Positions 3,893 through 51,093 of a stretch of DNA of 64,000 nt are shown here, one piece after another. The translations under genes were made by a program, and so were the position numbers. The stretch is from Clostridia bacterium. GTDB taxonomy: Bacteria > Bacillota > Clostridia > Oscillospirales > Acutalibacteraceae. The stretch spans positions 10,827-74,826 of the forward strand of contig CAAGBN010000068.1 in the NCBI GenBank assembly GCA_900768075.1, in the 5' to 3' direction. Position 1 is the stretch's first letter. The number at the start of each line of letters is the position of its first letter. The notes under the pieces were generated by a model. The model did not search any database, had not been told where the DNA came from, and was given only the letters and a program-made list of their open reading frames with translations.

Positions 3893-4142
3893 AATATCGT
3901 TTAAAAGCTATGACTGAGAAAACAGTAGTCGACGGACAAGACTTTTCAGAGAGGGATTCATATGCTGAAAGAATCCTACTGTCCCCGAAGATGAATTTCG
4001 CCTCACGAGCCGCCTGTGAAAAGCAGGATGTAGTTGCTGCATTAAAGCAAACCAAAGTGGCAGGGTACAAAACAAACCTTGCAATTTGAGTGGTACCACG
4101 GATATTTTTCCGCCTCAATGTTATGAGGCGGTTTTATTTTTT
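3893..4142 (+). promoter_or_regulatory. T-box riboswitch leader (Phe) with terminator/antiterminator
   Basis: T-box sequence aatttgagtggtaccacgg at 4083-4101. Terminator ccgcctc/gaggcgg at 4110-4131 followed by a T-tract. AGAGA-type motif at 3947-3953. Tentative UUC specifier at 3997-3999. Lies directly upstream of pheS. Confidence 0.8.
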
Positions 4143-34094: not shown

Positions 34095-34347
34095 ACTTAC
34101 GACTTAAAGAAGGATGTCGTTTTGCTTAAGCCGATTACTCGCGGCTCCACAATATCATCAAAGGCAGGTCTTCTGACTCAGCTATCAATGCCTTGCTTCG
34201 TCTTCTCGGCCTTCACCAATGACTGTGCTTTTGCACCTGAAGCAAGACTCCTGCATTACAGCGACGAGTTCGTGAGGGATTTTCACCCTTCTTCCCTTTT
34301 CACCGGATATATAAATTTATCCGACACCTTAGATGTTTATTCACTTG
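34095..34347 (-). promoter_or_regulatory. Cobalamin riboswitch
   Basis: On the minus strand: GGGAAGAAGGGTGAAAATCCC (plus 34276-34297) and B12 box AGTCAGAAGACCTGCC (plus 34163-34178). ccttctttaa can pair with the RBS region, which suggests translational control. Confidence 0.8.
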
Positions 34348-37980: not shown

Positions 37981-38022
37981 ACTAAAACGAAAGCAGATAA
38001 TTCCTGAAAAGAATTATCTGCT
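37981..38022 (-). terminator. Intrinsic terminator of paralog 2
   Basis: 12-bp stem agcagataattc / gaattatctgct followed by a T-rich tail on the minus strand. Confidence 0.7.
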
Positions 38023-38058
38023 AAAATATTTTTATTTTGTCGCTTTTTATCCGGTAAA

Positions 38059-38766
38059 TCAAGCGAATGCCTGGAATATTTTAAGGATATCTGTAGCTGA
38101 AATTTGATCAAGAAGATTTGCAGGGTTGAGCTTAGCAATCAGAACCTTGAAAACAAGAATGATTCTTTCAATAATGTTTGAAATGCCTGAAATAGGTGAG
38201 TCTGCGGTTGGCTCGTTGTACTTTGAAACCTTGATATCTTTGATAGCACCGTCATACTTGATAACTGTGCATTCATACTGCTCAGAAAAACCTTCTACGA
38301 AAACGAGCTGATATGCTGCTTTGCCGTCAGCTGTTACGATTTCCTGCTTCGAAATAACAGAAGTGTTGCTTTCGTTAAGACCTAAAGCTTCGATTGCAAG
38401 AGCGCAAGCCTGTTCCATTGTGATATTTCTGAGGAATATTGATTCGATGGCAATGACGGTAGCTGACTGTGAATAGATTTTGCCTGTGTACTTATCAAGT
38501 ACAGTTTCATAAACAGCTGTTTTACCTGTCTTAAGAAGAAGAGTTGATTTAACATTGTAAACTTCAACCTGACCTTCAGCGTCGTGGTTGTATGTACCGC
38601 TTGTAACATATGTGCCTAATGCAATCTCTGAGTCATAGTTTACGTGTGCAACAGCTTTAGCCTTAGCCTCATCTTTTGTCAGAGCAACGGATTCATCTGC
38701 AAAAGCGACTATACCCATACTGAATGTGAGAATTATAGCCAGAATTAATGATAATGTTTTTTTCAT
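38059..38766 (-). CDS. Secreted tandem PepSY-like protein, paralog 2
   Basis: Same signal peptide and architecture as 37297-37941 (VLDKYTGKIYS; tail NIIERIILVFKVLIAKLN). Start at ATG 38766. Confidence 0.6.
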   Translation of the reverse strand: MKKTLSLILAIILTFSMGIVAFADESVALTKDEAKAKAVAHVNYDSEIALGTYVTSGTYNHDAEGQVEVYNVKSTLLLKTGKTAVYETVLDKYTGKIYSQSATVIAIESIFLRNITMEQACALAIEALGLNESNTSVISKQEIVTADGKAAYQLVFVEGFSEQYECTVIKYDGAIKDIKVSKYNEPTADSPISGISNIIERIILVFKVLIAKLNPANLLDQISATDILKIFQAFA

Positions 38767-38878
38767 AATGTTTACCACCTTTTTTAGAAATTTATTCCGA
38801 TTCTTTCTTTATAATAATGCAAAAAGCAAAATGAATAATTCTAATCGGGAAATATCACAAAATATCACAAAATGTTTA

Positions 38879-39535
38879 TTATTTTGTCATCTTTTCCTGT
38901 TTAACCTTATGGTCGATAATGTGGCGAGAAGCAAGCTCACGGTGAACTTCTTCCATTGAGATGCCCATTTCGTTCATAAGCACCATTACATGGTATGCAA
39001 GGTCAGCAATTTCATAAATTGTTTCTGCCTTGTCGTCAGCCTTTGCAGCGATGATAACCTCTGTGCATTCTTCGCCGACCTTTTTGAGAATCTTGTCGAT
39101 ACCCTTCTGGAAAAGGTATGTTGTATATGAGCCCTCGGGGAGAGATTCTTTTCTGCCCTTGAGAAGATCGTAAAGACCCTGGAGTGAAAATTCGCTGAGC
39201 TCTTCACTCTGATATACGGGAGCTGTAAAGCAGGAATCTGTACCCTTATGACAAGCAGGGCCGTCCTTTTCAACTACAACTGTAAGTGCGTCCATATCGC
39301 AGTCTGCTGTGATTGAAACGATGTGCTGATAGTTGCCGCTTGTTTCACCCTTGAGCCAGAGCTCCTGACGTGAACGTGAATAGAAGCAGGTGAGACCTTT
39401 TTCTATAGAAATCTCAAGGCTTTCACGGTTCATATAAGCAAGAGTGAGCACCTTTTTAGTTATAGAGTCAACAACGATTGCAGGGATAAGACCCTTATCG
39501 TCGAATTTAAGCTGATTAATATCAAAATCTATCAT
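38879..39535 (-). CDS. hisIE: Bifunctional phosphoribosyl-AMP cyclohydrolase / phosphoribosyl-ATP diphosphatase
   Basis: The HisI segment (GLIPAIVVD...WLKGETSGN) is fused to a HisE MazG-like segment. Confidence 0.9.
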   Translation of the reverse strand: MIDFDINQLKFDDKGLIPAIVVDSITKKVLTLAYMNRESLEISIEKGLTCFYSRSRQELWLKGETSGNYQHIVSITADCDMDALTVVVEKDGPACHKGTDSCFTAPVYQSEELSEFSLQGLYDLLKGRKESLPEGSYTTYLFQKGIDKILKKVGEECTEVIIAAKADDKAETIYEIADLAYHVMVLMNEMGISMEEVHRELASRHIIDHKVKQEKMTK

Positions 39536-39538
39536 TGT

Positions 39539-40297
39539 TTATAACCTCACATTTATGTTGTTTTCTTTCAGAAGCTTTTTAAGATCTTTTATCTGTACTT
39601 CACCGAAGTGGAAGATAGAAGCTGCAAGACCTGCATCGATATCGGGTATCTCATTGAAGAGAGTGACGAAGTCTTCAGCTGAGCCTGCACCGCCTGATGC
39701 GATTACGGGCACGTTGACAGCTTCGCAGACTGCCTTGAGCATTTCAATGTCAAAGCCTTGCTTTACACCGTCGGTATCAATAGAGTTGACAACAACTTCG
39801 CCTGCACCCATATCAACACAGCGCTTAATCCAGGATATTGCTTCCATACCTGTGTCTTCTCTGCCGCCCTTTGCAAAGACGTGGAAAACACCGTCAACAC
39901 GCTTGATGTCGCAGGAGATAACCACACACTGATTGCCGTAAAGACGTGCAGCCTGACTGATAAGCTCAGGGTTTCTGATAGCGCCTGAGTTTACGCTCAC
40001 CTTGTCGGCACCGCATTTGAGTACGCGGTCAAAGTCTTCTACAGTGTTGATGCCACCGCCCACGGTGAGGGGAATGAATATCTTAGAAGCAACCTCTCTG
40101 AGAATATCGGTGAAAAGAGCTCTGCCCTCAGCACTTGCAGTGATGTCATAGAAAACAAGCTCATCAGCACCGCACTTGCTGTAAAATTCACCGAGCTCAA
40201 CGGGTGAGGATACATCATTGAGATTCTGAAAGTTAGTACCCTTAACAACTCTGCCGTCTCTTACGTCGAGGCAGGGGATAATTCTTTTTGTAATCAT
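39539..40297 (-). CDS. hisF: Imidazole glycerol phosphate synthase cyclase subunit
   Basis: KRIIPCLDVRDGRVVKG N-terminus and a (beta/alpha)8 pattern. Confidence 0.95.
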   Translation of the reverse strand: MITKRIIPCLDVRDGRVVKGTNFQNLNDVSSPVELGEFYSKCGADELVFYDITASAEGRALFTDILREVASKIFIPLTVGGGINTVEDFDRVLKCGADKVSVNSGAIRNPELISQAARLYGNQCVVISCDIKRVDGVFHVFAKGGREDTGMEAISWIKRCVDMGAGEVVVNSIDTDGVKQGFDIEMLKAVCEAVNVPVIASGGAGSAEDFVTLFNEIPDIDAGLAASIFHFGEVQIKDLKKLLKENNINVRL

Positions 40298-41007
40298 TTT
40301 GCCACCTCAACTGCTTGCTTTAAATCTACAGCACCGATATAGTATGCCTTGCCGAGAATTGCACCGTAAAGGTTCATATCCTTGAGTGCCTTGATATCGT
40401 CAATGCTTGAGACACCGCCTGAAGCAACAATATCCATAGTGTACTTCTCTGAAAGCTCTTTGTAAAGCTCACGGTTAGTGCCCTGCATAGCACCGTCTTT
40501 TGAAATGTCGGTGCAGATAACAGTTTTAACACCGATGTCGCTGAGATGCTTGAAAAACTCATCAGCGGTGAGTGCACTTTTTTCAGTCCAGCCCTTTATA
40601 GCAACATAGCCGTCTTTAAGGTCAACACCGACTGCGATAGCTTCCTTATATTTGGAAACCATCTTGCGAAGAAACTCGTCATCTGTTACGGCAGCTGTAC
40701 CGAGAATAACTCTTTCAACACCGAGGTCGATATATTTCTGCACAGTTTCCTCGTCACGTATACCGCCGCCGATTTCTACCTTAAGGTCGGTATAATCCAC
40801 AACCTTGCGAACCTCATCAATGTTGGGAGTAGTGCCGTTTTTAGCACCCTCAAGGTCAACCATATGGATGTAGGTTGCACCGCATTCCTGAAACTTTCTT
40901 GCAATTTCAATGGGGTTGTTGCTGTAAACTGTCATTTCGTTATAGTCGCCCTTGTAAAGACGAACTGCTTTTTTATCATATAAATCAATAGCAGGTAAAA
41001 TAAGCAT
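40294..41007 (-). CDS. hisA: ProFAR isomerase
   Basis: ILPAIDLYDKKAVRLYKGDY. Overlaps hisF by 4 nt. Confidence 0.9.
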   Translation of the reverse strand: MLILPAIDLYDKKAVRLYKGDYNEMTVYSNNPIEIARKFQECGATYIHMVDLEGAKNGTTPNIDEVRKVVDYTDLKVEIGGGIRDEETVQKYIDLGVERVILGTAAVTDDEFLRKMVSKYKEAIAVGVDLKDGYVAIKGWTEKSALTADEFFKHLSDIGVKTVICTDISKDGAMQGTNRELYKELSEKYTMDIVASGGVSSIDDIKALKDMNLYGAILGKAYYIGAVDLKQAVEVAK

Positions 41008-41008
41008 A

Positions 41009-41629
41009 TCAGTTTTCTCCTATCTCGCAAAATCCTCTGAGAATATTAAGACCTACATCGCCGCTTTTTTCAGGATGAAACTGACAGCCGTAGATGTTAT
41101 TCTTCCATACAGCCGCAGTGAAGTCTATGCCGTACTCTGCCGAGGTTGCACATTCTGCGATGCCCTTTTCGGCAAAGTATGAGTGTACGAAATACACGTG
41201 GTCACCGTCCTTGAGATATTTGAAAAGAGGACAGTCCTTATTCTCGATTTTAAGAGCATTCCAGCCGATGTGAGGAATCTTAAGCTCACTTGCAAGCTTG
41301 CCCTCGAAAGGGAGAATATCTGCATCAATAAGACCTAAGCCCTCGTGACAGCCGTATTCATAAGAATGCTTGAAGAGAAGCTGCATACCAAGACAGATAC
41401 CCATAAGAGGCTTGCCTTTTGCAACCTCATCAAGGACTACCTTGTCAAGTCCGCTGTCTCTGAGTTTTTTTGCAGCATCTTCAAAGGCACCTACACCGGG
41501 GAGTATAATTTTATCGGCTCTCTTTATAGTGTCAACATCGTTTGTTATAAGGGCATCAGCACCGATAGCCTTAAAGGATGACACAAGTGAAAAGAGATTT
41601 CCTACGCCGTAGTCAATAATCGCAATCAT
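41009..41629 (-). CDS. hisH: Imidazole glycerol phosphate synthase glutaminase subunit
   Basis: IAIIDYGVGNL, GICLGMQ and FHPEKS triad motifs. Confidence 0.95.
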   Translation of the reverse strand: MIAIIDYGVGNLFSLVSSFKAIGADALITNDVDTIKRADKIILPGVGAFEDAAKKLRDSGLDKVVLDEVAKGKPLMGICLGMQLLFKHSYEYGCHEGLGLIDADILPFEGKLASELKIPHIGWNALKIENKDCPLFKYLKDGDHVYFVHSYFAEKGIAECATSAEYGIDFTAAVWKNNIYGCQFHPEKSGDVGLNILRGFCEIGEN

Positions 41630-42216
41630 TAAAGTACTCCTTTGGTTGAGGGGATTTTGTCCTTGTTCTTTTCGTCAATGGCAACTGCGGCTTTCATTGT
41701 GCGTGCAAAGCTCTTGAAGGTGCCCTCAATGATGTGGTGTGAATTATAGCCTGCGAGCTGCTTTATGTGAAGAGTCACACCTGCATGTCGGACAAAAGCC
41801 TCGAAGAATTCACGAGTGAGCTCTGTGTCAAAGTCACCGACCTTTTCTGTGGGGATATCAAGGTCATAGCCGAGATAGCTTCTGCCTGAAATATCCACAG
41901 CTGTGAGAATAAGGCTTTCATCCATAGGCAGAATAAAGCTGCCGTAGCGTGTGATGCCTTTCATATCGCCGAGAGCCTTTCTGAAAGCGTCGCCAAGGCA
42001 GATAGCGATATCCTCTGCTGTGTGGTGATAGTCAACCTGAGTGTCACCGATACATTTTACATTAAGGTCAAATGAGCCGTGACGACTAAAAAGGGTAAGC
42101 ATATGGTCAAGAAAACCACAGTCTGTATCAATTTCGCCCTTGCCGTCGCCATCTAAACATAAAGTGAGAGTAATATCTGTCTCTGCAGTTTTTCTGATAA
42201 TTTCAGCTGTTCTCAT
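41629..42216 (-). CDS. hisB: Imidazoleglycerol-phosphate dehydratase
   Basis: RKTAETDI..., HHTAED and SHHIIE motifs. Confidence 0.95.
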   Translation of the reverse strand: MRTAEIIRKTAETDITLTLCLDGDGKGEIDTDCGFLDHMLTLFSRHGSFDLNVKCIGDTQVDYHHTAEDIAICLGDAFRKALGDMKGITRYGSFILPMDESLILTAVDISGRSYLGYDLDIPTEKVGDFDTELTREFFEAFVRHAGVTLHIKQLAGYNSHHIIEGTFKSFARTMKAAVAIDEKNKDKIPSTKGVL

Positions 42217-42219
42217 GCT

Positions 42220-43281
42220 TTATGCTCCTTTCACAATCTTTTTCATTGTATCAACAAAGACCTGCATTTCTTCTTCAGAGCCTATTGTGATACGGTTGTA
42301 ATCTTTAATTTTTTCATCTGTAAAGTGTCTTACGAGTATGCCGTTTTCACGAAGCTTTGTGTAGAGATCAATACCGCTGATGCTTTCGTGCTTGGCAAAA
42401 ATGAAGTTTGTCTTTGAGTCGAGGACTTCAAATCCAATTTCGCGAAGTGCCTTTGTCACCATTTCGCGTGTATCACAGATTCTCTTGCAGTTAGCCATAT
42501 AATAGTCATTTTCAGCCATAGCAGCTGTGCCTGCAAGCTGTGAGAGTCTGTTGATATTGTAGGGGTTGGTTGAATACTTGATTTTTTCCAAATCCTTGAT
42601 AAGCTCTTCGTTTGCGAAGCAGTAGCCGAGTCTTGCACCTGCAAGGCTGTAGGATTTTGAGAAAGTACGGCAGACAATAAGATTGTCGTACTTCTTTATA
42701 AGCTCGTAGCAGGATGTACCGCCGAAATCAACATAAGCCTCGTCGATAAGAACAACATTGTCTTTGTTTGAAAGGATGATTTCTTCGATTACATCAAGAC
42801 CAAGCTCTAAGCCTGTGGGGGCATTGGGGTTTGCGATAACGGTGAACTTACCTGTATTCATATACTTGTTTTTGTCGATAGTGAAATCTTCTTCAAGGGG
42901 AATCATAGTCTTTTCAATGCCGTAAAGGTCACAGAAAACCTTGTAGAAGCCGTAGGAGATTTCAGGGAAGACAGCACCGCTGACATTACCGTAGACCATA
43001 AAGGCAAAGTTGAGAATTTCATCTGAGCCGTTGGATACGAAAACGTTTTTATCCTCTACACCGTAAACCTCAGCGATAGCCTTTTTCACCTTGCTGCTTT
43101 CAGGGTCACTGTAAAGACGAAGGTCGGAGACCTCGGCAGAGTTAACAGCTGAAATAACTGACGGTGAGGGAGGGTAGGGTGACTCGTTGGTGTTGAGCTT
43201 TATGTATTTTTTATCCTTAGGCTGTTCACCTGGCACATATTCCTTAAGTGCGGAGAATGCACCGTCTATATATTTACTCAT
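42220..43281 (-). CDS. hisC: Histidinol-phosphate aminotransferase
   Basis: Class II aminotransferase. LNTNESP and TFSKSYSLAGARLGY (PLP lysine) motifs. Confidence 0.9.
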   Translation of the reverse strand: MSKYIDGAFSALKEYVPGEQPKDKKYIKLNTNESPYPPSPSVISAVNSAEVSDLRLYSDPESSKVKKAIAEVYGVEDKNVFVSNGSDEILNFAFMVYGNVSGAVFPEISYGFYKVFCDLYGIEKTMIPLEEDFTIDKNKYMNTGKFTVIANPNAPTGLELGLDVIEEIILSNKDNVVLIDEAYVDFGGTSCYELIKKYDNLIVCRTFSKSYSLAGARLGYCFANEELIKDLEKIKYSTNPYNINRLSQLAGTAAMAENDYYMANCKRICDTREMVTKALREIGFEVLDSKTNFIFAKHESISGIDLYTKLRENGILVRHFTDEKIKDYNRITIGSEEEMQVFVDTMKKIVKGA

Positions 43282-43284
43282 AAA

Positions 43285-44559
43285 TTATTCCTCAAATCTG
43301 ATGGTTGCGCTCTTGCCGTGAGCTGTGAGTCCCTCTTTATCGGCAAAGAAAGCAACGTCTTTATAAACTTCTTTAAGTGCATTTTCGGTGTAATATGTAA
43401 ACTGTGATTTCTTCACGAAATCGTCAACACCGAGGGCACTTGAAAATCTTGCAGTACCGCTTGTGGGAAGTGTGTGGTTGGGACCTGCATAGTAGTCACC
43501 GAGAGCTTCGGGACAGTATCTGCCCATAAAGATTGAGCCTGCATGCTTAACTGAATCAAGATAATCAAAGGGATTATCAAGGCAGAGCTCAAGATGTTCG
43601 GGAGCAATTTCATTAGCAATATCGATCCCTGCCATAATGGTATCGGCAACGATGATTTTACCGTTGTTGTCGATTGAAGCTCTTGCAATTTCTGCTCTTT
43701 CGAGAAGAGGAATCTGCTTCTCAAGTGAAACTGAAACCTTTTCAGCAAGCTCCATACTGTCTGTTACAAGTACGGCTGAAGCGTTCTTGTCGTGCTCTGC
43801 CTGTGAGAGAAGGTCGGCAGCAACAAAGTCGGGGTTTGATTTGCCGTCTGCAAGAACAAGGATTTCACTGGGGCCTGCAATCATATCGATTGATACCATG
43901 CCGAAAACCTGACGCTTAGCTTCTGCAACGAAAGCATTACCGGGGCCGACGATTTTATCAACCTTGGGTACTGTCTCTGTGCCGTAGGCGAGAGCTGCAA
44001 CTGCCTGAGCACCGCCTACCTTGAAGATACGGTCAACGCCTGCAATTTTAGCAGCAGCGAGAATAACGGGATTAACCTTGCCGTCCTTTGACGGGGGAGT
44101 AACGATTGAGATTTCCTTACAGCCTGCAATTTTAGCAGGAACACTGTCCATAAGTACAGTTGAGGGGTACGCTGCCGTGCCACCGGGTACATAAAGACCG
44201 ACCTTTTCAATAGCGGTAATCTTCTGGCCTGTAACAACGCCGTTTTTCTCGTTGATAATAAAGCTGTTTCTTACCTGCTTTGAATGGAAGTTTCTGATGT
44301 TTTCTTCGGCTGTGCGAAGAATTCTGATAAATTCGGGATCAACGGTGTTGAAAGCCTCTTCGATTTCTTCTTCGGTAACCTCAAGAGAGGTGAGAGTAGC
44401 TTTGTCGAATTTTTCGCAATACTCGAAAAGAGCCTTATCACCGTTTGCTTTAACGTTTTCTATAATATCTGTGACTATATCGCTGACATCAACTGTATCA
44501 GCCATACGGGAAAATATTTCGTTATTTTCCACTTCGCCGTATTTATAAATCTTAATCAT
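43285..44559 (-). CDS. hisD: Histidinol dehydrogenase
   Basis: 424 aa. QAEHD and APEHLEL motifs. Confidence 0.95.
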   Translation of the reverse strand: MIKIYKYGEVENNEIFSRMADTVDVSDIVTDIIENVKANGDKALFEYCEKFDKATLTSLEVTEEEIEEAFNTVDPEFIRILRTAEENIRNFHSKQVRNSFIINEKNGVVTGQKITAIEKVGLYVPGGTAAYPSTVLMDSVPAKIAGCKEISIVTPPSKDGKVNPVILAAAKIAGVDRIFKVGGAQAVAALAYGTETVPKVDKIVGPGNAFVAEAKRQVFGMVSIDMIAGPSEILVLADGKSNPDFVAADLLSQAEHDKNASAVLVTDSMELAEKVSVSLEKQIPLLERAEIARASIDNNGKIIVADTIMAGIDIANEIAPEHLELCLDNPFDYLDSVKHAGSIFMGRYCPEALGDYYAGPNHTLPTSGTARFSSALGVDDFVKKSQFTYYTENALKEVYKDVAFFADKEGLTAHGKSATIRFEE

Positions 44560-45190
44560 TGTTTTCCCTCACAATTTTTCCGAGAGCTTCAGTAATTTTG
44601 CTGATTTGCTCTGTTTTGAATTTGTATGATGCTTTGTTTGAAATGAGTCTTGCGGAAATCTCAACAATTGTTTCCTTAGGCTCAAGGTCATTTTCATATA
44701 AGGTTTTGCCTGTTTCAACTATATCCACAATAACATCGGAAAGACCTAAAATAGGTGCAATTTCAATTGAACCGTTAAGGTGGATAATATCAATATCGCG
44801 GCATTTTTCATTATAGAACTTCTGAGCGATGTTTGAGAATTTTGTAGCAACTCTCAGGGTTTCAGCCGTGTTGTCACGGAAGTCTTTTTTAGCCGCAACA
44901 GCCATTCGGCACTTGCCTATCTTAAGGTCAAGAAGCTCATAAACATCGGGAGAGTACTCAAGAAGAATATCCTTACCTGCAACACCGATATCTGCTGCGC
45001 CTCTTTCAACATATATAGCAACGTCTGAGGGCTTAACCCAGAAGTATCTTACACCGACTTCTTCATTTTCGAAGATGAGCTTACGGTTAGTCTCCTTGAT
45101 AGAGGGACATTCATAGCCCGACTGCTCAAACATAGCGTAAACCTTTTCACCGAGTCTTCCCTTGGGAAGAGCGACATTAATAAATTCCAT
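44552..45190 (-). CDS. hisG: ATP phosphoribosyltransferase, short form
   Basis: 212 aa with VALPKGRL. The short form is consistent with the presence of hisZ. Confidence 0.9.
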   Translation of the reverse strand: MEFINVALPKGRLGEKVYAMFEQSGYECPSIKETNRKLIFENEEVGVRYFWVKPSDVAIYVERGAADIGVAGKDILLEYSPDVYELLDLKIGKCRMAVAAKKDFRDNTAETLRVATKFSNIAQKFYNEKCRDIDIIHLNGSIEIAPILGLSDVIVDIVETGKTLYENDLEPKETIVEISARLISNKASYKFKTEQISKITEALGKIVRENND

Positions 45191-46296
45191 CAGGCACCCT
45201 CCAATCCGTCTTTAGTAAGCTTCATCAGACTCTTGTATCTGATGTTCTTGGGAATTTCACTTAAAACGATGACGCTGAAACCGTTCTCTGAAAGAGACTC
45301 AACAGTTCTGATAACTGCTGCCGATGAACAGTTGTCATCCTTTATAATAACGAAATCGTAATCGTAATCAGCTGCTTTGTTGCCGTGTCTTTCAAGAGTG
45401 TCAAGGTATACTGCAAAGCCTACAGCACTTGAGGTCTTGCCCATTTTTTTCATAAGCTTGTCATACTGACCGCCTGAAAGGACACTTGTAAATATACCTG
45501 AAATATATCCCTTGAATACAATACCGCTATAGTATGAGCTGTCACTGACCATTGAGAAGTCAATTCTCACCTTGTCTGTGAGCTCAAGGTCAACAAGAGA
45601 ATTGCAGATAGCTGAAAATTCATTGAGCTGACTGTCAGCCTCGGCACTGATACCGCCGAAAGCCTCTGCAACCTCACCGCAGTTTTTGTATGTAGACATA
45701 AGCTTTGAGATTATATCATAGGAGAATTTATCGATAATTTCATTTTGGAATAAAGATGAGATTTCATCAATGCTTTTGTTGCGGATGCTTTCAAAGACTG
45801 ACTTTTTAACGTCAGCTGAAAGTTTGCACTCACCGATAAGAGCTGATACGAGACCTGCATGAGCAATATCGAGCATATAGTTTTTATCAATAGTCTCAAG
45901 ACTCTTTACTGCAAGATAAAGGACCTCACAAACATCATAAAGGCTGATGTCACCGATACATTCAAGGCCTGTCTGATTAATCTCCTTGAAAGAATGTGAA
46001 TCGCTTGAGATACGGTAAACGTTTTCATTATAATAGAGCTTCTCAACGGCACCTTTTACATCCTTGGCGTTCTTTATAATTGAAAGAGTAACGTCGGGCT
46101 TGAGGGCAAGAAGTCTGCCGTTGGTATCTGTGAATGTGATGATACCGTCACTGATAAGGAAATCCTTGTTTCTTACATAAAGATCATATTCCTCAAACTT
46201 GCTCATCTTGAATCGAGTGTAGCCGAACCTTCTGTAAAGTGAGCGAAGATTAAATATTGCCTTTTCGTCGTTTCTGAATATATTTTCGTTAAGCAT
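45190..46296 (-). CDS. hisZ: ATP phosphoribosyltransferase regulatory subunit
   Basis: HisRS-like catalytic-core paralog without an anticodon-binding domain. Overlaps hisG by 1 nt. Confidence 0.85.
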   Translation of the reverse strand: MLNENIFRNDEKAIFNLRSLYRRFGYTRFKMSKFEEYDLYVRNKDFLISDGIITFTDTNGRLLALKPDVTLSIIKNAKDVKGAVEKLYYNENVYRISSDSHSFKEINQTGLECIGDISLYDVCEVLYLAVKSLETIDKNYMLDIAHAGLVSALIGECKLSADVKKSVFESIRNKSIDEISSLFQNEIIDKFSYDIISKLMSTYKNCGEVAEAFGGISAEADSQLNEFSAICNSLVDLELTDKVRIDFSMVSDSSYYSGIVFKGYISGIFTSVLSGGQYDKLMKKMGKTSSAVGFAVYLDTLERHGNKAADYDYDFVIIKDDNCSSAAVIRTVESLSENGFSVIVLSEIPKNIRYKSLMKLTKDGLEGA

Positions 46297-46297
46297 A

Positions 46298-46585
46298 TCA
46301 TTCTTCTCCTAATCTGTCGATTGCTGTTTTATATCCGCCGCCACCGTAGTTTACACACTTGCTTACACGGCAGATTGTAGCGGTGCTTGCGCCTGTCTGC
46401 TTGTTGATATCCACATAGCTTTTGCCCTGACAAAGAAGCCTTGCAACCTCAAAACGCTGAGCAATAGAATCAAGCTCCTGAACAGTGAAAGCATCTTCAA
46501 AAAAGTTGTAGCATTCTTCTATATTTTCAAGTGAGAGTATAGCTTTAAAAAGACTGTCAATAGATTCTTTCTGATATTTACGCAT
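46298..46585 (-). CDS. YerC/YecD-type TrpR-like DNA-binding protein (candidate his regulator)
   Basis: 95 aa. The ...RFEVARLL..GKSY..I...TGASTATI.RV..C...G..GY pattern is typical of the YerC/YecD family. It is the first gene of the his operon and ends 1 nt before hisZ. Confidence 0.75.
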   Translation of the reverse strand: MRKYQKESIDSLFKAILSLENIEECYNFFEDAFTVQELDSIAQRFEVARLLCQGKSYVDINKQTGASTATICRVSKCVNYGGGGYKTAIDRLGEE

Positions 46586-46785: not shown

Positions 46786-46872
46786 AAGCAGGTATTTCCA
46801 CAAAACTTACGGGATAATTTTTCGATGATGAAGAATAAAGCACTGCTTACCCACTATTTATGAATAAAATTG

Positions 46873-46901
46873 TTGACTTGCAATAAAAATCGTGTTATAA
46901 T
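46873..46901 (+). promoter_or_regulatory. Sigma-A promoter of the SCIFF operon
   Basis: TTGACT, 17-nt spacer, TGtTATAAT (extended -10). Confidence 0.65.
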
Positions 46902-46932
46902 AAACCGAACAAACTCACAGGAGGTTAATACC

Positions 46933-47079
46933 ATGAAGCGTATTAAGACAATGGAAACAAAAAATCTTTGCAATTCAGCTAAGAACGGCGGTTGCGGCGA
47001 ATGCCAGACATCCTGCCAGTCAGCATGTAAGACAAGCTGCGGTATCGCTAATCAGCAGTGCGAAAGCAAGCAGAAATAA
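46933..47079 (+). CDS. SCIFF (six-cysteine) ranthipeptide precursor
   Basis: 48 aa: MKRIKTMETKNLCNSAKNGGCGECQTSCQSACKTSCGIANQQCESKQK. The GGCGECQTSCQSACKTSC core is the SCIFF signature. GGAGG RBS. Confidence 0.9.
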   Translation: MKRIKTMETKNLCNSAKNGGCGECQTSCQSACKTSCGIANQQCESKQK

Positions 47080-47128: not shown

Positions 47129-47165
47129 CGTAATAAATATAGTTTAAATGAAAGGTAGACTGAAA

Positions 47166-48545
47166 ATGATACATTCCTATAAACTCGGTGGTCTGAATAT
47201 CGTGCTTGATATCTGCTCGGGCTCAGTGCATGTGGTTGACGAGGTTGCTTACGATATAATCGGACTTTATGAAAGCGAGAGCAAAGAAAATATCATCGCT
47301 CAGATGCTTGAGAAGTACGCTGACAGAGACGATGTTACCAAAGAAGAGCTTGAGCTTTGCTTTGAGGATATCGAAGAGCTTAAGGCTCAGGGTAAGCTTT
47401 TTTCAGAGGACACCTTTGAGCCTATGGCAGGGGATCTTAAGAAAAAGAGTGCAGGTATCGTAAAGGCTCTTTGTATGCACATCGCACACACCTGCAATCT
47501 CAACTGCTCTTACTGCTTTGCAAGTCAGGGCAAGTACCACGGTGACAGAGCTATGATGAGCTTCGAGGTTGGTAAGCAGGCTTTTGATTTCCTTATTGCT
47601 AATTCAGGTACAAGAAGAAACCTTGAGGTTGACTTCTTTGGCGGTGAGCCCCTTATGAATTTCGATGTGGTTAAGGAGCTTGTGGCTTATGCAAGAAGCA
47701 TCGAAAAGGATCACGGCAAAAACTTCCGTTTTACTCTCACAACCAACGGTGTGCTTATTGATGACGATGTCATTGACTTTGCCAACAAGGAAATGAGCAA
47801 CGTTGTTTTAAGTCTCGACGGCAGAAAAGAAGTACACGACCGCTTCCGTGTGGACTATAACGGCAAGGGTAGCTGGGATAAGATAGTGCCCAAATTCCAG
47901 AAGCTTGTAGAGGCTCGTGAGGGTAAGAACTATTATATGAGAGGTACCTTCACTCATCATAACCCCGACTTCCTTGAGGATATCAAGGAGATGCTTTCAC
48001 TCGGCTTTAAGGAGCTGAGTATGGAGCCTGTTGTCTGCGCCGCTGATGACCCATCTGCTCTTACAGATGAAGATTTACCTGTAGTTATGAAGCAGTACGA
48101 AGACCTTGCAGAGCTTATGCTTAAAAAGCACAAAGAGGGAGACGGCTTCACATTCTATCACTATATGATTGATCTTAAGGGTGGCCCTTGTATCTATAAG
48201 AGAATTTCAGGTTGTGGCTCGGGTACAGAGTATATGGCTGTAACTCCCTGGGGTGATCTTTATCCCTGCCATCAGTTTGTAGGCGAAGAAAAATACAGGC
48301 TCGGTGATGTCTGGAAGGGTGTTACAAACACAGATGTTCAGAATGAATTTGCAGAGTGCAACGTATATACAAGAGAAGAGTGCCGCAAATGTTGGGCAAG
48401 ACTTTACTGCTCAGGCGGTTGTGCGGCTAATGCCTACCACGCAACAGGCAGCGTAAAGGGTATCTATGCTACAGGCTGTGAGCTTTTCAAAAAGAGAATG
48501 GAATGTGCAATTATGCTTGAAGTTGCCAAGACCTTAGGTGAATAA
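47166..48545 (+). CDS. SCIFF radical SAM / SPASM-domain maturase
   Basis: CNLNCSYC radical-SAM cluster motif and a C-terminal SPASM cysteine set (CRKCWARLYCSGGC). Adjacent to the SCIFF gene. Start likely ATG 47166. Confidence 0.9.
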   Translation: MIHSYKLGGLNIVLDICSGSVHVVDEVAYDIIGLYESESKENIIAQMLEKYADRDDVTKEELELCFEDIEELKAQGKLFSEDTFEPMAGDLKKKSAGIVKALCMHIAHTCNLNCSYCFASQGKYHGDRAMMSFEVGKQAFDFLIANSGTRRNLEVDFFGGEPLMNFDVVKELVAYARSIEKDHGKNFRFTLTTNGVLIDDDVIDFANKEMSNVVLSLDGRKEVHDRFRVDYNGKGSWDKIVPKFQKLVEAREGKNYYMRGTFTHHNPDFLEDIKEMLSLGFKELSMEPVVCAADDPSALTDEDLPVVMKQYEDLAELMLKKHKEGDGFTFYHYMIDLKGGPCIYKRISGCGSGTEYMAVTPWGDLYPCHQFVGEEKYRLGDVWKGVTNTDVQNEFAECNVYTREECRKCWARLYCSGGCAANAYHATGSVKGIYATGCELFKKRMECAIMLEVAKTLGE

Positions 48546-48546
48546 T

Positions 48547-49890
48547 ATGAACACACCACTGAGTGATTTTCTTGAGAAATATTCAGCAGAAAACAAGGTG
48601 CGCTTTCATATGCCGGGTCACAAGGGCAGACCTGTGACAGGTACTGAAGAGCTTGATATCACCGAGGTTGACGGTGCAGATGTGCTTTACAGCGCCTCGG
48701 GTGTAATTAAAGAGAGTATGGACAATGCTTCTGCTCTTTTCGGTACTGCTAAAACTCTCTACAGCACTGAGGGTTCATCTCTTTCAATCAGGGCTATGGT
48801 GTATCTTCTGAAGCTTTATGCTTTAAGAAAGGGTGAAAAGCCTGAAATATTGGCTTTCCGTAATGCCCATAAGACCTTCATCACTGCTTGTGCCGTAACA
48901 GATACAGAAATAACCTGGCTTTACGGCAAGGGAAATAAGGGTATAACCTGCTGTGATATTGATGCTGAGGATGTAAGAGAATATCTCGAAAGCAGAGAAA
49001 AACTGCCTACTGCGCTTTATGTGACTTCGCCCGACTATCTGGGCAATATGGCTGATATCAAGGCACTCTCTGAGCTTTGCAGTGAAAAAGGCATAATCCT
49101 CGCTATTGATAATGCTCACGGAGCGTATCTCAACTTTCTTCCTGAAAATATCCACCCCATAACCTTAGGTGCGGATATCTGCTGTGACTCTGCTCATAAA
49201 ACTCTGCCTGTGCTTACAGGTGGCGCATATCTTCATATCAGCAAAAAAGCCCTCTCACTTTTCAGTGAAAAGGCTGAATATGCACTATCTCTCTTTGCAT
49301 CCACGAGTCCGTCATATCTGATTATGTGCTCTCTTGATAAGGCTAACGGCTTGATTGGTGCCGACTATAAAGATAGTCTTGCAGTTTTCATCGGCAAGGT
49401 ACAAGGTCTTAAAGACAGCCTTACAGCTAAAGGCTATTCTTTCGTTGGAGATGAGCCACTAAAGCTCACATTTGAGAGTAAAAAATACGGATACAAGGGT
49501 ACAGAATTGGCAGAGTACCTTTACAGCAAAAACATAGTCTGTGAGTTCAGCGATGAAGATTACACAGTGCTTATGCTGACACCGTCAAATACAGGGGATG
49601 AGCTTTCATATCTCAAAGAGGTGCTTTCTGATTTACCTTTGAGAGAACAAATCACAGCTAATCCTCCTCGTTTAACAAAGCCTGAAAGAGCAGTGCCTTT
49701 AAGCGAGTGCATTTATATGCCCACGGAAAAAATCAGCACTCAGGCATCTTTGGGCAGAATCTGCGGTGCTGTCAATGTCAGCTGTCCTCCTGCTGTGCCG
49801 ATTGTTATTGCAGGTGAGAGAATAGGCGAGAGTGAAAAGGCTCTGCTGGACTATTACGGTGTGACGGAGATTGAAGTTATAAGTGAATAA
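48547..49890 (+). CDS. Orn/Lys/Arg decarboxylase family PLP enzyme
   Basis: FHMPGHKGR N-terminus and DSAHKTLP (PLP lysine). Starts 1 nt after the maturase stop. Confidence 0.8.
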   Translation: MNTPLSDFLEKYSAENKVRFHMPGHKGRPVTGTEELDITEVDGADVLYSASGVIKESMDNASALFGTAKTLYSTEGSSLSIRAMVYLLKLYALRKGEKPEILAFRNAHKTFITACAVTDTEITWLYGKGNKGITCCDIDAEDVREYLESREKLPTALYVTSPDYLGNMADIKALSELCSEKGIILAIDNAHGAYLNFLPENIHPITLGADICCDSAHKTLPVLTGGAYLHISKKALSLFSEKAEYALSLFASTSPSYLIMCSLDKANGLIGADYKDSLAVFIGKVQGLKDSLTAKGYSFVGDEPLKLTFESKKYGYKGTELAEYLYSKNIVCEFSDEDYTVLMLTPSNTGDELSYLKEVLSDLPLREQITANPPRLTKPERAVPLSECIYMPTEKISTQASLGRICGAVNVSCPPAVPIVIAGERIGESEKALLDYYGVTEIEVISE

Positions 49891-49896
49891 GAATTT

Positions 49897-49927
49897 AAGA
49901 GACAAGACTTGAACTTGTCTCTTTTTT
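49897..49927 (+). terminator. Intrinsic terminator of the SCIFF operon
   Basis: aagagacaag / cttgtctctt, loop acttgaa, then tttt. Confidence 0.8.
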
Positions 49928-49983
49928 GTATGTAATTAAATAAAGTGTTGATTTTTTTTGCATTAAAATGCTAAAATGATTTT

Positions 49984-50199
49984 GCCAAGCAAATCTTAAT
50001 AACAAAGAAAGGTATTCCTTTGATTTTTTCCAAGGGGGTATTGTGCCCTTTTGTCTTTTTGCATATCAAATTGGATTCGTTAAAAACGCGATTCCACTTG
50101 ATGTGCAATTGGTTTACCTTTTGTGATTAAGATTTGTTTGGCGACAATCGGAGTTGCGTTTTATGTGTGCCAGCTTCGGTTGGCGCACTTTTTTATTTT
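49984..50199 (+). ncRNA. Candidate stand-alone structured sRNA (6S-like long closing helix)
   Basis: Promoter TTGATT (49948) ... TGcTAAAAT (49969-49977). 49984-50006 pairs with 50120-50142 (17 contiguous bp, one mismatch, then 5 more). Internal stems 50061-50069/50098-50106 and 50072-50079/50089-50096. Strong terminator at 50165-50199 (10-bp stem, UUCG loop, T-run). No ORF. Confidence 0.45.
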
Positions 50200-50280
50200 G
50201 TGGGGTAAAATTGTGTAGCTTCGTGAAAGGAGAAAATGAAGAAAACAAACCACAAAAATATAAATGAAAGGATTTTTTAA

Positions 50281-51093
50281 ATGAAAAAATTATTATCACT
50301 TGTGCTTGCAGTTATTATGCTTTTATCCATAATGCCTATGGCTTATGCTGAGCGAGCTACATATTCACCTGAAATTGAGGAGTATATTGAGGATTATATA
50401 AAAGCGTACGCTTATGTTAATAGTGTATATGAACCTCGTGAACAGAATTTGGAAGTTAATGACATAATTCTTGAAGCTATCGGTGAAAACACTGCGATTT
50501 TCCCAAAGTATGAAAATCTCATTAACATTGAAGCTGATGGCCGATTAGAGGAAATTACTGCTTCGCATGAGTGCTTTAAAAAAGGTATTGATGAGGTGGA
50601 GAAAAAAATTGCTGACGGTGAACTTGTTGTTGTTATAAATTTTTATGAATTTTGGAAATGTTTTTGGTATCTTGAATGTTGTTATTACAGTTCAAAAGAT
50701 TATATGGAATTAAATGATAGAGTTAAAAATTTAAAAAGCGACAAATATATTGAAGCTGAAATCGCTATAGATACAGTTTATGAAATATTGAGAAGGGAAG
50801 ATAATACATACACCCAGGCTGAATTTGATGCTGCTATGGAAATAATTAAACCTTTTTTTAATTCATGTTGTGCTTGCCTTGATGGCAACCACCCATACGG
50901 CGAATATATATCAGATAACAATGCAACCGAAGAAGCAGACGGCACAAAGACAGCTACCTGTGAATTCTGCGGTGCAACCGATACAATAACCGATGAGGGC
51001 ACAAAGCTCCCAAAAGAAAAAGCTACATTACTTGAAATGATTTTTGATCTTATACAAGATTTCTTTGATTTGATTTTCTCTATGTTTAAATAA
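50281..51093 (+). CDS. Secreted protein of unknown function (low GC)
   Basis: Signal peptide MKKLLSLVLAVIMLLSIMPMAYA. Cys-rich middle region, CEFCG motif, and amphipathic C-terminal tail LLEMIFDLIQDFFDLIFSMFK. Confidence 0.6.
   Translation: MKKLLSLVLAVIMLLSIMPMAYAERATYSPEIEEYIEDYIKAYAYVNSVYEPREQNLEVNDIILEAIGENTAIFPKYENLINIEADGRLEEITASHECFKKGIDEVEKKIADGELVVVINFYEFWKCFWYLECCYYSSKDYMELNDRVKNLKSDKYIEAEIAIDTVYEILRREDNTYTQAEFDAAMEIIKPFFNSCCACLDGNHPYGEYISDNNATEEADGTKTATCEFCGATDTITDEGTKLPKEKATLLEMIFDLIQDFFDLIFSMFK

Follow-up and report, generated by a model that had tools for sequence, protein, structure and literature searches.

The S-box (SAM-I) and T-box leaders of Firmicutes combine an anti-antiterminator, an antiterminator, and a terminator, with termination as the default outcome. 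Here we report the analysis of a stretch of Clostridia bacterium DNA (contig CAAGBN010000068.1; 64,000 nucleotides [nt], referred to as the window and numbered from its first letter), in which positions 49948-50199 of the + strand are likely to provide the gene at 50281-51093 with its promoter and 5' leader, the leader acting as a transcription attenuator made of competing RNA structures. As in S-box and T-box leaders, a promoter-proximal domain is predicted to use its closing helix (termed P1) and a neighboring strand to sequester the 5' strand of an antiterminator, which would compete with an intrinsic terminator located just before the regulated gene. Several features set the leader apart from these systems. 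Rfam detects the T-box leader of the window (3901-4120) but not the leader studied here. P1 is unusually long (approximately 25 to 31 base pairs [bp]) and begins at the 5' end of the predicted transcript, and the putative anti-antiterminator consists in part of a loop-to-tail pseudoknot. Finally, the genes associated with the leader code for surface and restriction-modification proteins rather than metabolic enzymes.

The ZTP/pfl, SAM-II/V, preQ1-II/III, and fluoride riboswitches resemble the leader in another respect, as in them, too, an internal loop engages a 3' tail in a conserved, covarying long-range pairing that adjoins or overlaps the expression platform. In contrast to these pseudoknotted riboswitches, the leader has no Rfam match, its conserved bases are mostly helical, its interior is variable, and its genes have no metabolic theme in common.

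A third system with a related layout is the cwpV switch of Clostridioides difficile. Its promoter lies outside imperfect 21-bp inverted repeats that bound a 195-bp invertible segment, and its OFF state is terminator based, with about 5% of the cells ON (PMC2784873). The order of elements is shared with our locus: a promoter, an inverted repeat of about 21 bp, 100 to 200 bp of intervening DNA, the second inverted repeat, and a surface-protein gene, with a terminator in the leader RNA expected to give the OFF state. However, the cwpV terminator is made at the junction between the repeat and the invertible segment, whereas that of the leader lies wholly outside the repeats, where it would be governed by the pseudoknot and the antiterminator. 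Moreover, the leader had no inverted allele in 109 copies, and its helix carries an RNA-specific wobble bias.

Architecture of the leader and its linkage to the downstream gene

The elements of the locus, in 5'-to-3' order, are the following.

49948-49977, + strand: sigma-70-type promoter found by the promoter scan, with -35 TTGATT (49948-49953), an 18-nt spacer, TG (49969-49970), and TAAAAT (49972-49977)
49982-50006, + strand: 5' strand of the long closing helix P1, at the predicted 5' end of the transcript, with the conserved base UGCCAARCAAA
50031-50053, + strand: hairpin P2, GGGGGUAUUGUGCCCUU, followed by a U-run; present in the minimum-energy fold and conserved in the long-form members of the family
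50059-50108, + strand: hairpin P3, with the stem 50059-50069/50098-50108 in the minimum-energy fold and an apical part that presents X'
50083-50095, + strand: X', AAAACGCGAUUCC, the 5' strand of the pseudoknot, complementary to 50150-50162 (inverted repeat I2)
50120-50144, + strand: 3' strand of P1; its base UUUGUUUGGCGA belongs to the conserved 3' module
50145-50162, + strand: linker CAAUC (50145-50149) and tail GGAGUUGCGUUUU (50150-50162)
50165-50199, + strand: intrinsic terminator, with the stem 50165-50174/50179-50188, a UUCG loop, and the U-tract 50189-50199
50171-50182, + strand: terminator apex CAGCUUCGGUUG, the putative 3' strand of the antiterminator as well
50200-50280, + strand: rest of the 5' untranslated region (UTR) of the read-through mRNA, with the ribosome-binding site (RBS) AAAGGA at 50267-50272; conserved in the closest orthologues (alignment A1)
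50281-51093, + strand: regulated gene, coding for a secreted protein of 270 amino acids that has a signal peptide but no Pfam domain

An earlier note on this DNA had described the region as an orphan small RNA (sRNA) candidate, possibly 6S-like, running from a promoter to a terminator. Most of its structural claims were borne out. The promoter scan returned the same promoter at the same coordinates, and this promoter is also retained at orthologous loci; the predicted transcription start falls approximately at the first bases of P1. The terminator that the note had called very strong has arms GTGTGCCAGC-TTCG-GTTGGCGCAC at 50165-50188, forming 10 pairs (6 of them G-C) and followed by a T-run. 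As claimed, no open reading frame (ORF) preceded by an RBS lies inside the promoter-to-terminator unit. The proposed closing helix was recovered in the window repeat search as an inverted repeat of 23 nt with 91% complementarity (49984-50006/50120-50142), and the minimum-energy fold extends it to 49982/50144, giving a 25-bp helix composed of 49982-50000/50126-50144 and 50002-50006/50120-50124. The same fold contains the small hairpin (50031-50053) and the distal stem (50059-50069/50098-50108, slightly longer than described), the former corresponding to P2 and to the conserved block GGGGUAUUAUACCCUUUU in alignments A3 and A4. In contrast, the tggattcg/cgattcca cap that the note had placed on the distal stem did not hold up: it was paired in 75.8% of the cells of the covariation analysis, which is no better than shuffled controls, and its 3' half is instead a strand of a covarying pseudoknot with 50150-50162. 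The predicted folding energy of the + strand RNA (49980-50199) was -87.3 kcal/mol, compared to -47.9 +/- 4.2 kcal/mol for dinucleotide shuffles (z = -9.5; none of 200 shuffles was as good), and the fold of the - strand was weaker (z = -6.2).

We compared the locus with three homologous loci that have different neighbors; a fourth, L001, is diverged. The 340 nt upstream of the homologous genes share 86 to 88% DNA identity with the window, while the encoded proteins are 63 to 65% identical, and the genes further upstream differ, amounting to three upstream contexts. Noncoding DNA that exceeds the neighboring protein in conservation and accompanies its gene points to a functional leader. This linkage extends to the wider family of leaders described below: an ORF on the same strand and preceded by a Shine-Dalgarno sequence was found within 350 nt of 106 of 122 family copies, at a median distance of about 40 nt. 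About half of these ORFs start 15 to 30 nt after the terminator, which leaves no space for another promoter. The element is thus located where a leader should be, in the 5' UTR, on the same strand, and directly before the gene. The structured noncoding transcript with its own promoter and terminator proposed in the earlier note was retained, as something other than an ORF or noise, but not its status as an orphan.

Two further observations concern the UTR downstream of the terminator. The region of the U-tract (50189-50203) could form a long-range helix with CCACAAAAAUAUAAA at 50250-50264, just before the RBS (15 nt, 80% complementarity; repeat I4), and the closest orthologues conserve a purine-rich block, GAAAGGAGAAAA (50225-50236). 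Taken together, these features suggest that the 5' UTR of the read-through mRNA contains a second structure.

Covariation and the two possible partners of the 3' tail

Pair counts were obtained from an alignment of 69 distinct members of the family. P1, the pseudoknot, and the terminator all covary. Overall, 96.8% of the cells in the alignment pair, and the covariation score was 0.331, compared to 0.196 for shuffles (0 of 500 reached the observed value) and at most 0.066 when the partners were slid. The 9 bp at the base of P1 were paired in 100% of the cells, with changes on both sides in 6 of the 9 pairs (for example, A-U in 39 sequences and C-G in 30). The pseudoknot between the X' loop and the 3' tail (15 bp) was paired in 94.3% of the cells, and both sides had changed in 6 of its 15 pairs. 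For the lower and upper helices of the terminator, the corresponding values were 99.8% and 94.9%, with both sides changed in 2 of 6 and 1 of 4 pairs, respectively. Isolated mismatches in P1 comprised 28 G.U versus 1 A.C, indicating selection for the helix in the + strand RNA. Furthermore, in the diverged L001 copy, the closing helix is rebuilt with other bases, ACCACACGAAAUCGAAUAUUA pairing with UAAUAUUCGAUUUUGUGUGGU. In its outer ~10 bp, P1 displays sequence conservation beyond what pairing alone would demand. As a result of the poor alignment of the interiors, RNAalifold recovered the base of P1 alone from the sensor domain, and P3 was tested on each sequence individually. This analysis revealed that X' always lies in the loop of a helix of member-specific sequence, with an energy of -14.6 kcal/mol, compared to -6.0 kcal/mol for shuffles (mean z = -3.9; 74 members).

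The linker and the first part of the tail (50145-50156, CAAUCGGAGUUG) are also complementary to the apex of the terminator (50171-50182). In the window, the calculated energies of the two competing duplexes are balanced (-19.0 kcal/mol for the pseudoknot and -16.2 kcal/mol for the antiterminator). When cut at 50182, the nascent RNA is predicted to fold as P1, P2, P3, and an antiterminator hairpin, 50145-50156/50171-50182. Across the family, the antiterminator duplex had a mean energy of -11.0 kcal/mol, compared to -5.4 kcal/mol for shuffled tails, and z was below -2 in 80% of the members. Three divergent loci (type C), which were found via protein homology and the covariance model, independently of the sequence pattern used to collect most of the family, displayed the same arrangement with unrelated sequences. 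In L020, the tail CUGAGCGAA pairs with the apex UUCGCUUGG, and the interior UUUUCGC pairs with the tail GCGAAAA. In L034, the tail AGCGAAUAAG pairs with the apex CUUAUUCGUU, and the interior UUUAUUUGC pairs with the tail GCGAAUAAG. In the type C loci, then, an interior strand and the terminator apex again compete for one tail.

In the mechanism that we propose, transcription would start at the base of P1. This long helix would close a domain made of P2 and P3, and the loop of P3 would present X' (50083-50095). The tail (50145-50162), just 3' of P1, would have two possible partners. Pairing of the tail with X' in the pseudoknot would allow the terminator (50165-50188) to form and transcription to stop, yielding an RNA of about 215 nt and leaving the gene off. 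A free tail would pair through 50145-50156 with the apex (50171-50182) as an antiterminator, resulting in read-through into the gene. Since P1 and the pseudoknot would hold the tail and block the antiterminator, together they would act as an anti-antiterminator. At the level of sequence, our comparisons establish P1, P3, the pseudoknot, and the terminator, as well as the linkage in cis and the complementarity between tail and apex; from these, we infer that transcription is accompanied by switching between the structures and that the balance responds to some input. The output mechanism is supported by covariation and by the calculated energetics. As for the nature of the input, a small ligand, a protein, or some other cue might act on the domain formed by P1, P2, and P3.

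Several points weigh against an attenuator of this kind. The antiterminator is weak in members of type B (for example, -2.9 kcal/mol in L017). In addition, the search pattern prescribed the apex CUUCGGUU, so the covariation of the antiterminator comes from the three type C loci and from one-sided changes in the tail. We found no RNA-only trigger that would keep X' off the tail, and the coexistence of P1 and the pseudoknot in three dimensions is argued from helix lengths. Unlike in most metabolite riboswitches, the most conserved bases lie inside helices and not in junctions. Lastly, surface and restriction-modification genes are classes typical of phase variation by DNA inversion and not of metabolite control.

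Two other expression platforms were considered and rejected. A classical antiterminator formed between the P1 strands and the terminator arms showed no covariation: where GCC in P1 changes to GCG or GTC, the terminator remains unchanged. Coupling to the translation of a leader peptide was suggested by GGAG-N9-AUG at the foot of the window terminator, but in typical members this frame is only two codons long (for example, GUG-CGU-UGA in TTTTTCGTGCGTTGAC). L002 and L003 have lost a 14-codon ORF that follows the terminator in the window.

The leader family and its downstream genes

Relatives of the leader were collected in two ways. A protein-based scan of species-representative genomes provided 80 loci, in which BLAST detected leaders similar to that of the window (type A) and leaders similar to that of L001 (type B). 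The second search employed a pattern consisting only of the terminator and the U-run preceding it, which matched all known members and no other locus at hand. Scanning metagenomes with this pattern yielded 103 stretches, nearly all of which share the 3' module UUUGUUUGGCGACAAUCGGAGUUUGCGUUUUU followed by the terminator, a similarity longer than the pattern demanded. The pattern had no match in 2.9 million viral contigs (0 in IMG/VR). Plasmids gave no match either. Two unannotated "Bacteriophage sp." records from human feces, MT835503.1 (468-538) and MT835845.1 (2170-2235), contain the tail-plus-terminator module only, with 84 to 89% identity. The genomes carrying the leader are labeled Acutalibacteraceae, Christensenellaceae, Ruminococcus, or "Clostridia bacterium" and come from the human gut and the rumen.

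A covariance model (R1) built from the 69 distinct members scored family members at 90 to 167 bits. Together, the pattern scan and the model brought the family to about 100 distinct relatives. In the 64-kb window, R1 identified exactly one copy (49983-50197; 144.6 bits) and no further ones. Rfam 15 yielded nothing overlapping the leader when the whole window was scanned at the gathering score or when 49850-50320 was scanned alone at an E value of <=10, and a scan of 20 related loci returned only tRNAs. The leader family is absent from Rfam 15. A literature search, by conserved sequence and by topic, retrieved no description of it, and the available supplements of the inverton paper contain no repeat matching the leader.

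A near-consensus promoter (TTGnnn, 16 to 19 nt, TAnnnT) was present in 67 of 70 representatives, with the TG element in 55 of them, and the distance from the end of the -10 element to the first base of P1 was 2 to 7 nt (mode, 5). P1 is a contiguous helix of 12 to 23 bp across the family, and its 5' strand starts with (U)GCCAAACAAA. The span from P1 to P1 varies from about 105 to 215 nt, and so does the architecture of the interior. L003 carries two copies of the leader on one contig, with X' and tail sequences unlike each other. Two loci, L104 (1689-2135) and L140 (11804-12191), contain two complete tandem cassettes, each with its own promoter, the first of which has no gene behind it, and in L139 (5815-6258) a degenerate copy without a clear P1 5' strand lies just upstream of a complete cassette. 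At other loci, the leader is reduced. Just upstream of position 3001 in L007 and L012 and of position 342 in L013, the promoter and the start of the P1 5' strand are kept but the leader is missing, while just upstream of position 3001 in L016, the same promoter is kept and only the terminator end CACACTTTTTT is left. L014, L015, and L169 have only a small hairpin, the tail, and the terminator. A few copies are interrupted by unrelated sequence that abuts the base of P1, the break lying after the 3' strand of P1 in L176 (about 1771-1844, - strand) and, in L184 (1166-1366, - strand), after the TGCG of the 5' strand; in L137 (3776-3974), a promoter lies within the element and the 5' strand of P1 is absent. 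Recombination at the conserved ends could account for these copies, as could chimeric assembly at a repeated sequence.

The protein encoded by 50281-51093 has 87 homologues in uncultured Clostridia. It has a variable, fast-evolving N-terminal part and an invariant C-terminal motif, HPYGEYISDNNATEEADGTKTATCEFCGATDT. The consensus of the motif, H-x-YGEYIS-x3-AT-x3-DGTKTA-x-C-x2-C-GATDT, is nearly invariant (alignment A2) and corresponds to no Pfam family. Much larger surface proteins of the LRR_5 and Flg_new types contain the motif as well, and in L033 its position is close to the N terminus. Exact-protein look-ups of the two genes flanking the leader returned no record. Pfam analysis of 20 proteins encoded downstream of leaders identified BspA-type LRR, dockerin-containing, collagen-repeat, and WG-repeat proteins; an EcoRI-type methylase, a BglII endonuclease, and a fused N6-methylase with a specificity subunit; and WYL, SHOCT, and DUF898 proteins. 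Lipoproteins and type I/IIG restriction enzymes are also represented among the downstream classes. Overall, BspA-type LRR, dockerin, and lipoprotein surface proteins and restriction-modification enzymes account for most of the downstream genes, and neither a common metabolic theme nor a candidate effector emerged. Two larger loci have a further DNA methylase and a GmrSD-type nuclease as neighbors. Otherwise, the neighborhoods (201 ORFs) comprise ordinary housekeeping genes, and recombinase, transposase, integrase, and conjugation genes were not enriched among these ORFs.

Other features of the window include two regulatory RNAs and a group of genes upstream of the leader.

3901-4120, + strand: T-box leader (Rfam, 96.8 bits)
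34146-34346, - strand: cobalamin riboswitch (Rfam, 96.2 bits), upstream of same-strand ORFs that form a run at about 38000-46300
46870-47079, + strand: ORF for a SCIFF-type Cys-rich peptide (containing CGECQTSCQSACKTSCGIANQQCE), followed by a radical SAM/SPASM maturase gene at 47148-48545
48538-49890, + strand: gene of the Orn/Lys/Arg decarboxylase family, following the maturase gene

The trio of SCIFF peptide, maturase, and decarboxylase genes is also found near the leader-bearing gene in L001 and L003, in differing orientations.

Alternative explanations and biological meaning

The strongest competitor of the attenuator described above is a DNA inversion switch that works through the same attenuator. 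According to this explanation, which we consider unlikely, the arms of P1 are inverted repeats recognized by a trans-acting site-specific recombinase. In the assembled orientation, X' would be complementary to the tail and the gene would be OFF; in the inverted orientation, X' would be tail-like, the antiterminator would form, and the gene would be ON. The system would be a regulon-wide version of the cwpV switch, with which it shares a segment that is bounded by inverted repeats and located between the promoter and the gene. The sequence conservation of the outer ~10 bp of P1 is as expected for a recombinase site, and in every member X' lies inside the repeats and the tail and terminator lie outside. 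Moreover, inversion in silico reduced the pairing between interior and tail from -17.5 to -10.6 kcal/mol, and the BspA-type LRR, dockerin, and lipoprotein genes, the EcoRI-type methylase, BglII, and the type I/IIG enzymes are classic phase-variable classes. However, the interior was flipped in none of 109 assembled copies (77 dissimilar representatives, from many samples and taxa), although consensus assemblies miss a minority orientation. The ratio of 28 G.U to 1 A.C in P1 indicates that the helix is selected as RNA in one orientation. The 25 most frequent Pfam families of each neighbor set (201 ORFs in all) included no integrase or resolvase family, although a trans-acting, RecV-like recombinase would not be encoded nearby. 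In addition, the interior of the short and type B members also has a tail-like strand (11 or 12 of 14 bases identical to the tail), so that a strand partly complementary to the tail would still be present after inversion. Since a strongly OFF-biased switch would escape consensus assemblies, these results weaken the inversion switch rather than dismiss it.

We regard as very unlikely that the element is a free-standing, trans-acting sRNA, 6S-like or other, with the terminator as its constitutive 3' end. The strong promoter, the strong terminator, and the very stable fold would suit an sRNA, and the first tandem units in L104 and L140 lack a gene directly behind them. The terminated RNA of about 215 nt probably accumulates in any case. 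The element resembles 6S RNA in size and in a long helix formed by both ends of the structured part. The 6S reading put forward in the earlier note was nevertheless not supported: the element had no match to 6S (RF00013) or any other Rfam family at the gathering score or at an E value of <=10, its interior is a three-way junction with a pseudoknot instead of a central bubble, single contigs can carry more than one copy of it, and it is tied in cis to the downstream gene. More generally, its orientation is fixed, the distance from the terminator to the next RBS is very short (15 to 25 nt in many relatives, too little for a separate promoter), and its conservation tracks the downstream gene. The complementarity between tail and apex would be purposeless in a pure sRNA, and the differing X' and tail sequences of the two copies in L003 argue against a shared trans target.

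The least probable alternative, to which we give almost no credence, is a selfish element similar to a miniature inverted-repeat transposable element (MITE), or a recombination site such as attC, with the promoter and terminator being incidental. The earlier note had named a MITE as its own alternative, and the sign that it had asked for, multiple copies with the same bounding repeats, was formally present: the element spans about 160 bp within inverted repeats of 17 to 25 bp, and many copies bounded by similar repeats exist across related genomes. Furthermore, the leader is present or absent between homologous genes (missing in L007, L012, and L013; a remnant in L016), tandem cassettes exist, and the P1 base GCCAAAC...GUUUGGC resembles the core sites of integron attC. 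In L139 (6043-6206), the base is GCCTAAC...GTTAGGC, which likewise resembles the attC inverse-core and core sites. The attC reading was set aside on account of the RNA-strand bias of P1, the fixed promoter context, and the absence of integrases nearby. A selfish repeat is further at odds with the single copy in the 64-kb window, the lack of matches in viral contigs and plasmids, the differing interiors, the covarying helices with their G.U bias, the X' partner strand outside the repeats, the constant position and orientation relative to promoter and gene, and the housekeeping neighbors with no enrichment of transposase or integrase genes and no mobility genes nearby. No direct repeat flanks P1 in the window (AATGATT/TTGCC on one side and GGCGA/CAATC on the other, the slash marking the boundary). 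The homologues without a leader keep the 5' start of P1 and hence look like products of a deletion, not like empty insertion sites.

Returning to the attenuator leader, a bolder form of this explanation is that the family is a new class of effector-sensing leaders, either a riboswitch or a protein-dependent attenuator, through which one signal acts on many horizontally variable genes of gut Clostridia that are scattered along the chromosome and code for BspA-type LRR and dockerin surface proteins, lipoproteins, and restriction-modification enzymes. We put this forward tentatively, as possible but doubtful. In such a class, the 5'-terminal long helix and the pseudoknot anti-antiterminator would constitute the sensor. 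The question that these findings pose is which signal, or which recombinase, flips the switch. If our interpretation is correct, one modular RNA cassette would gate genes for the cell surface and for defense against foreign DNA in some abundant but little-studied Clostridia of the human and ruminant gut. These genes would form a regulon that is invisible to protein annotation, and the cassette would add a leader family missing from Rfam 15.

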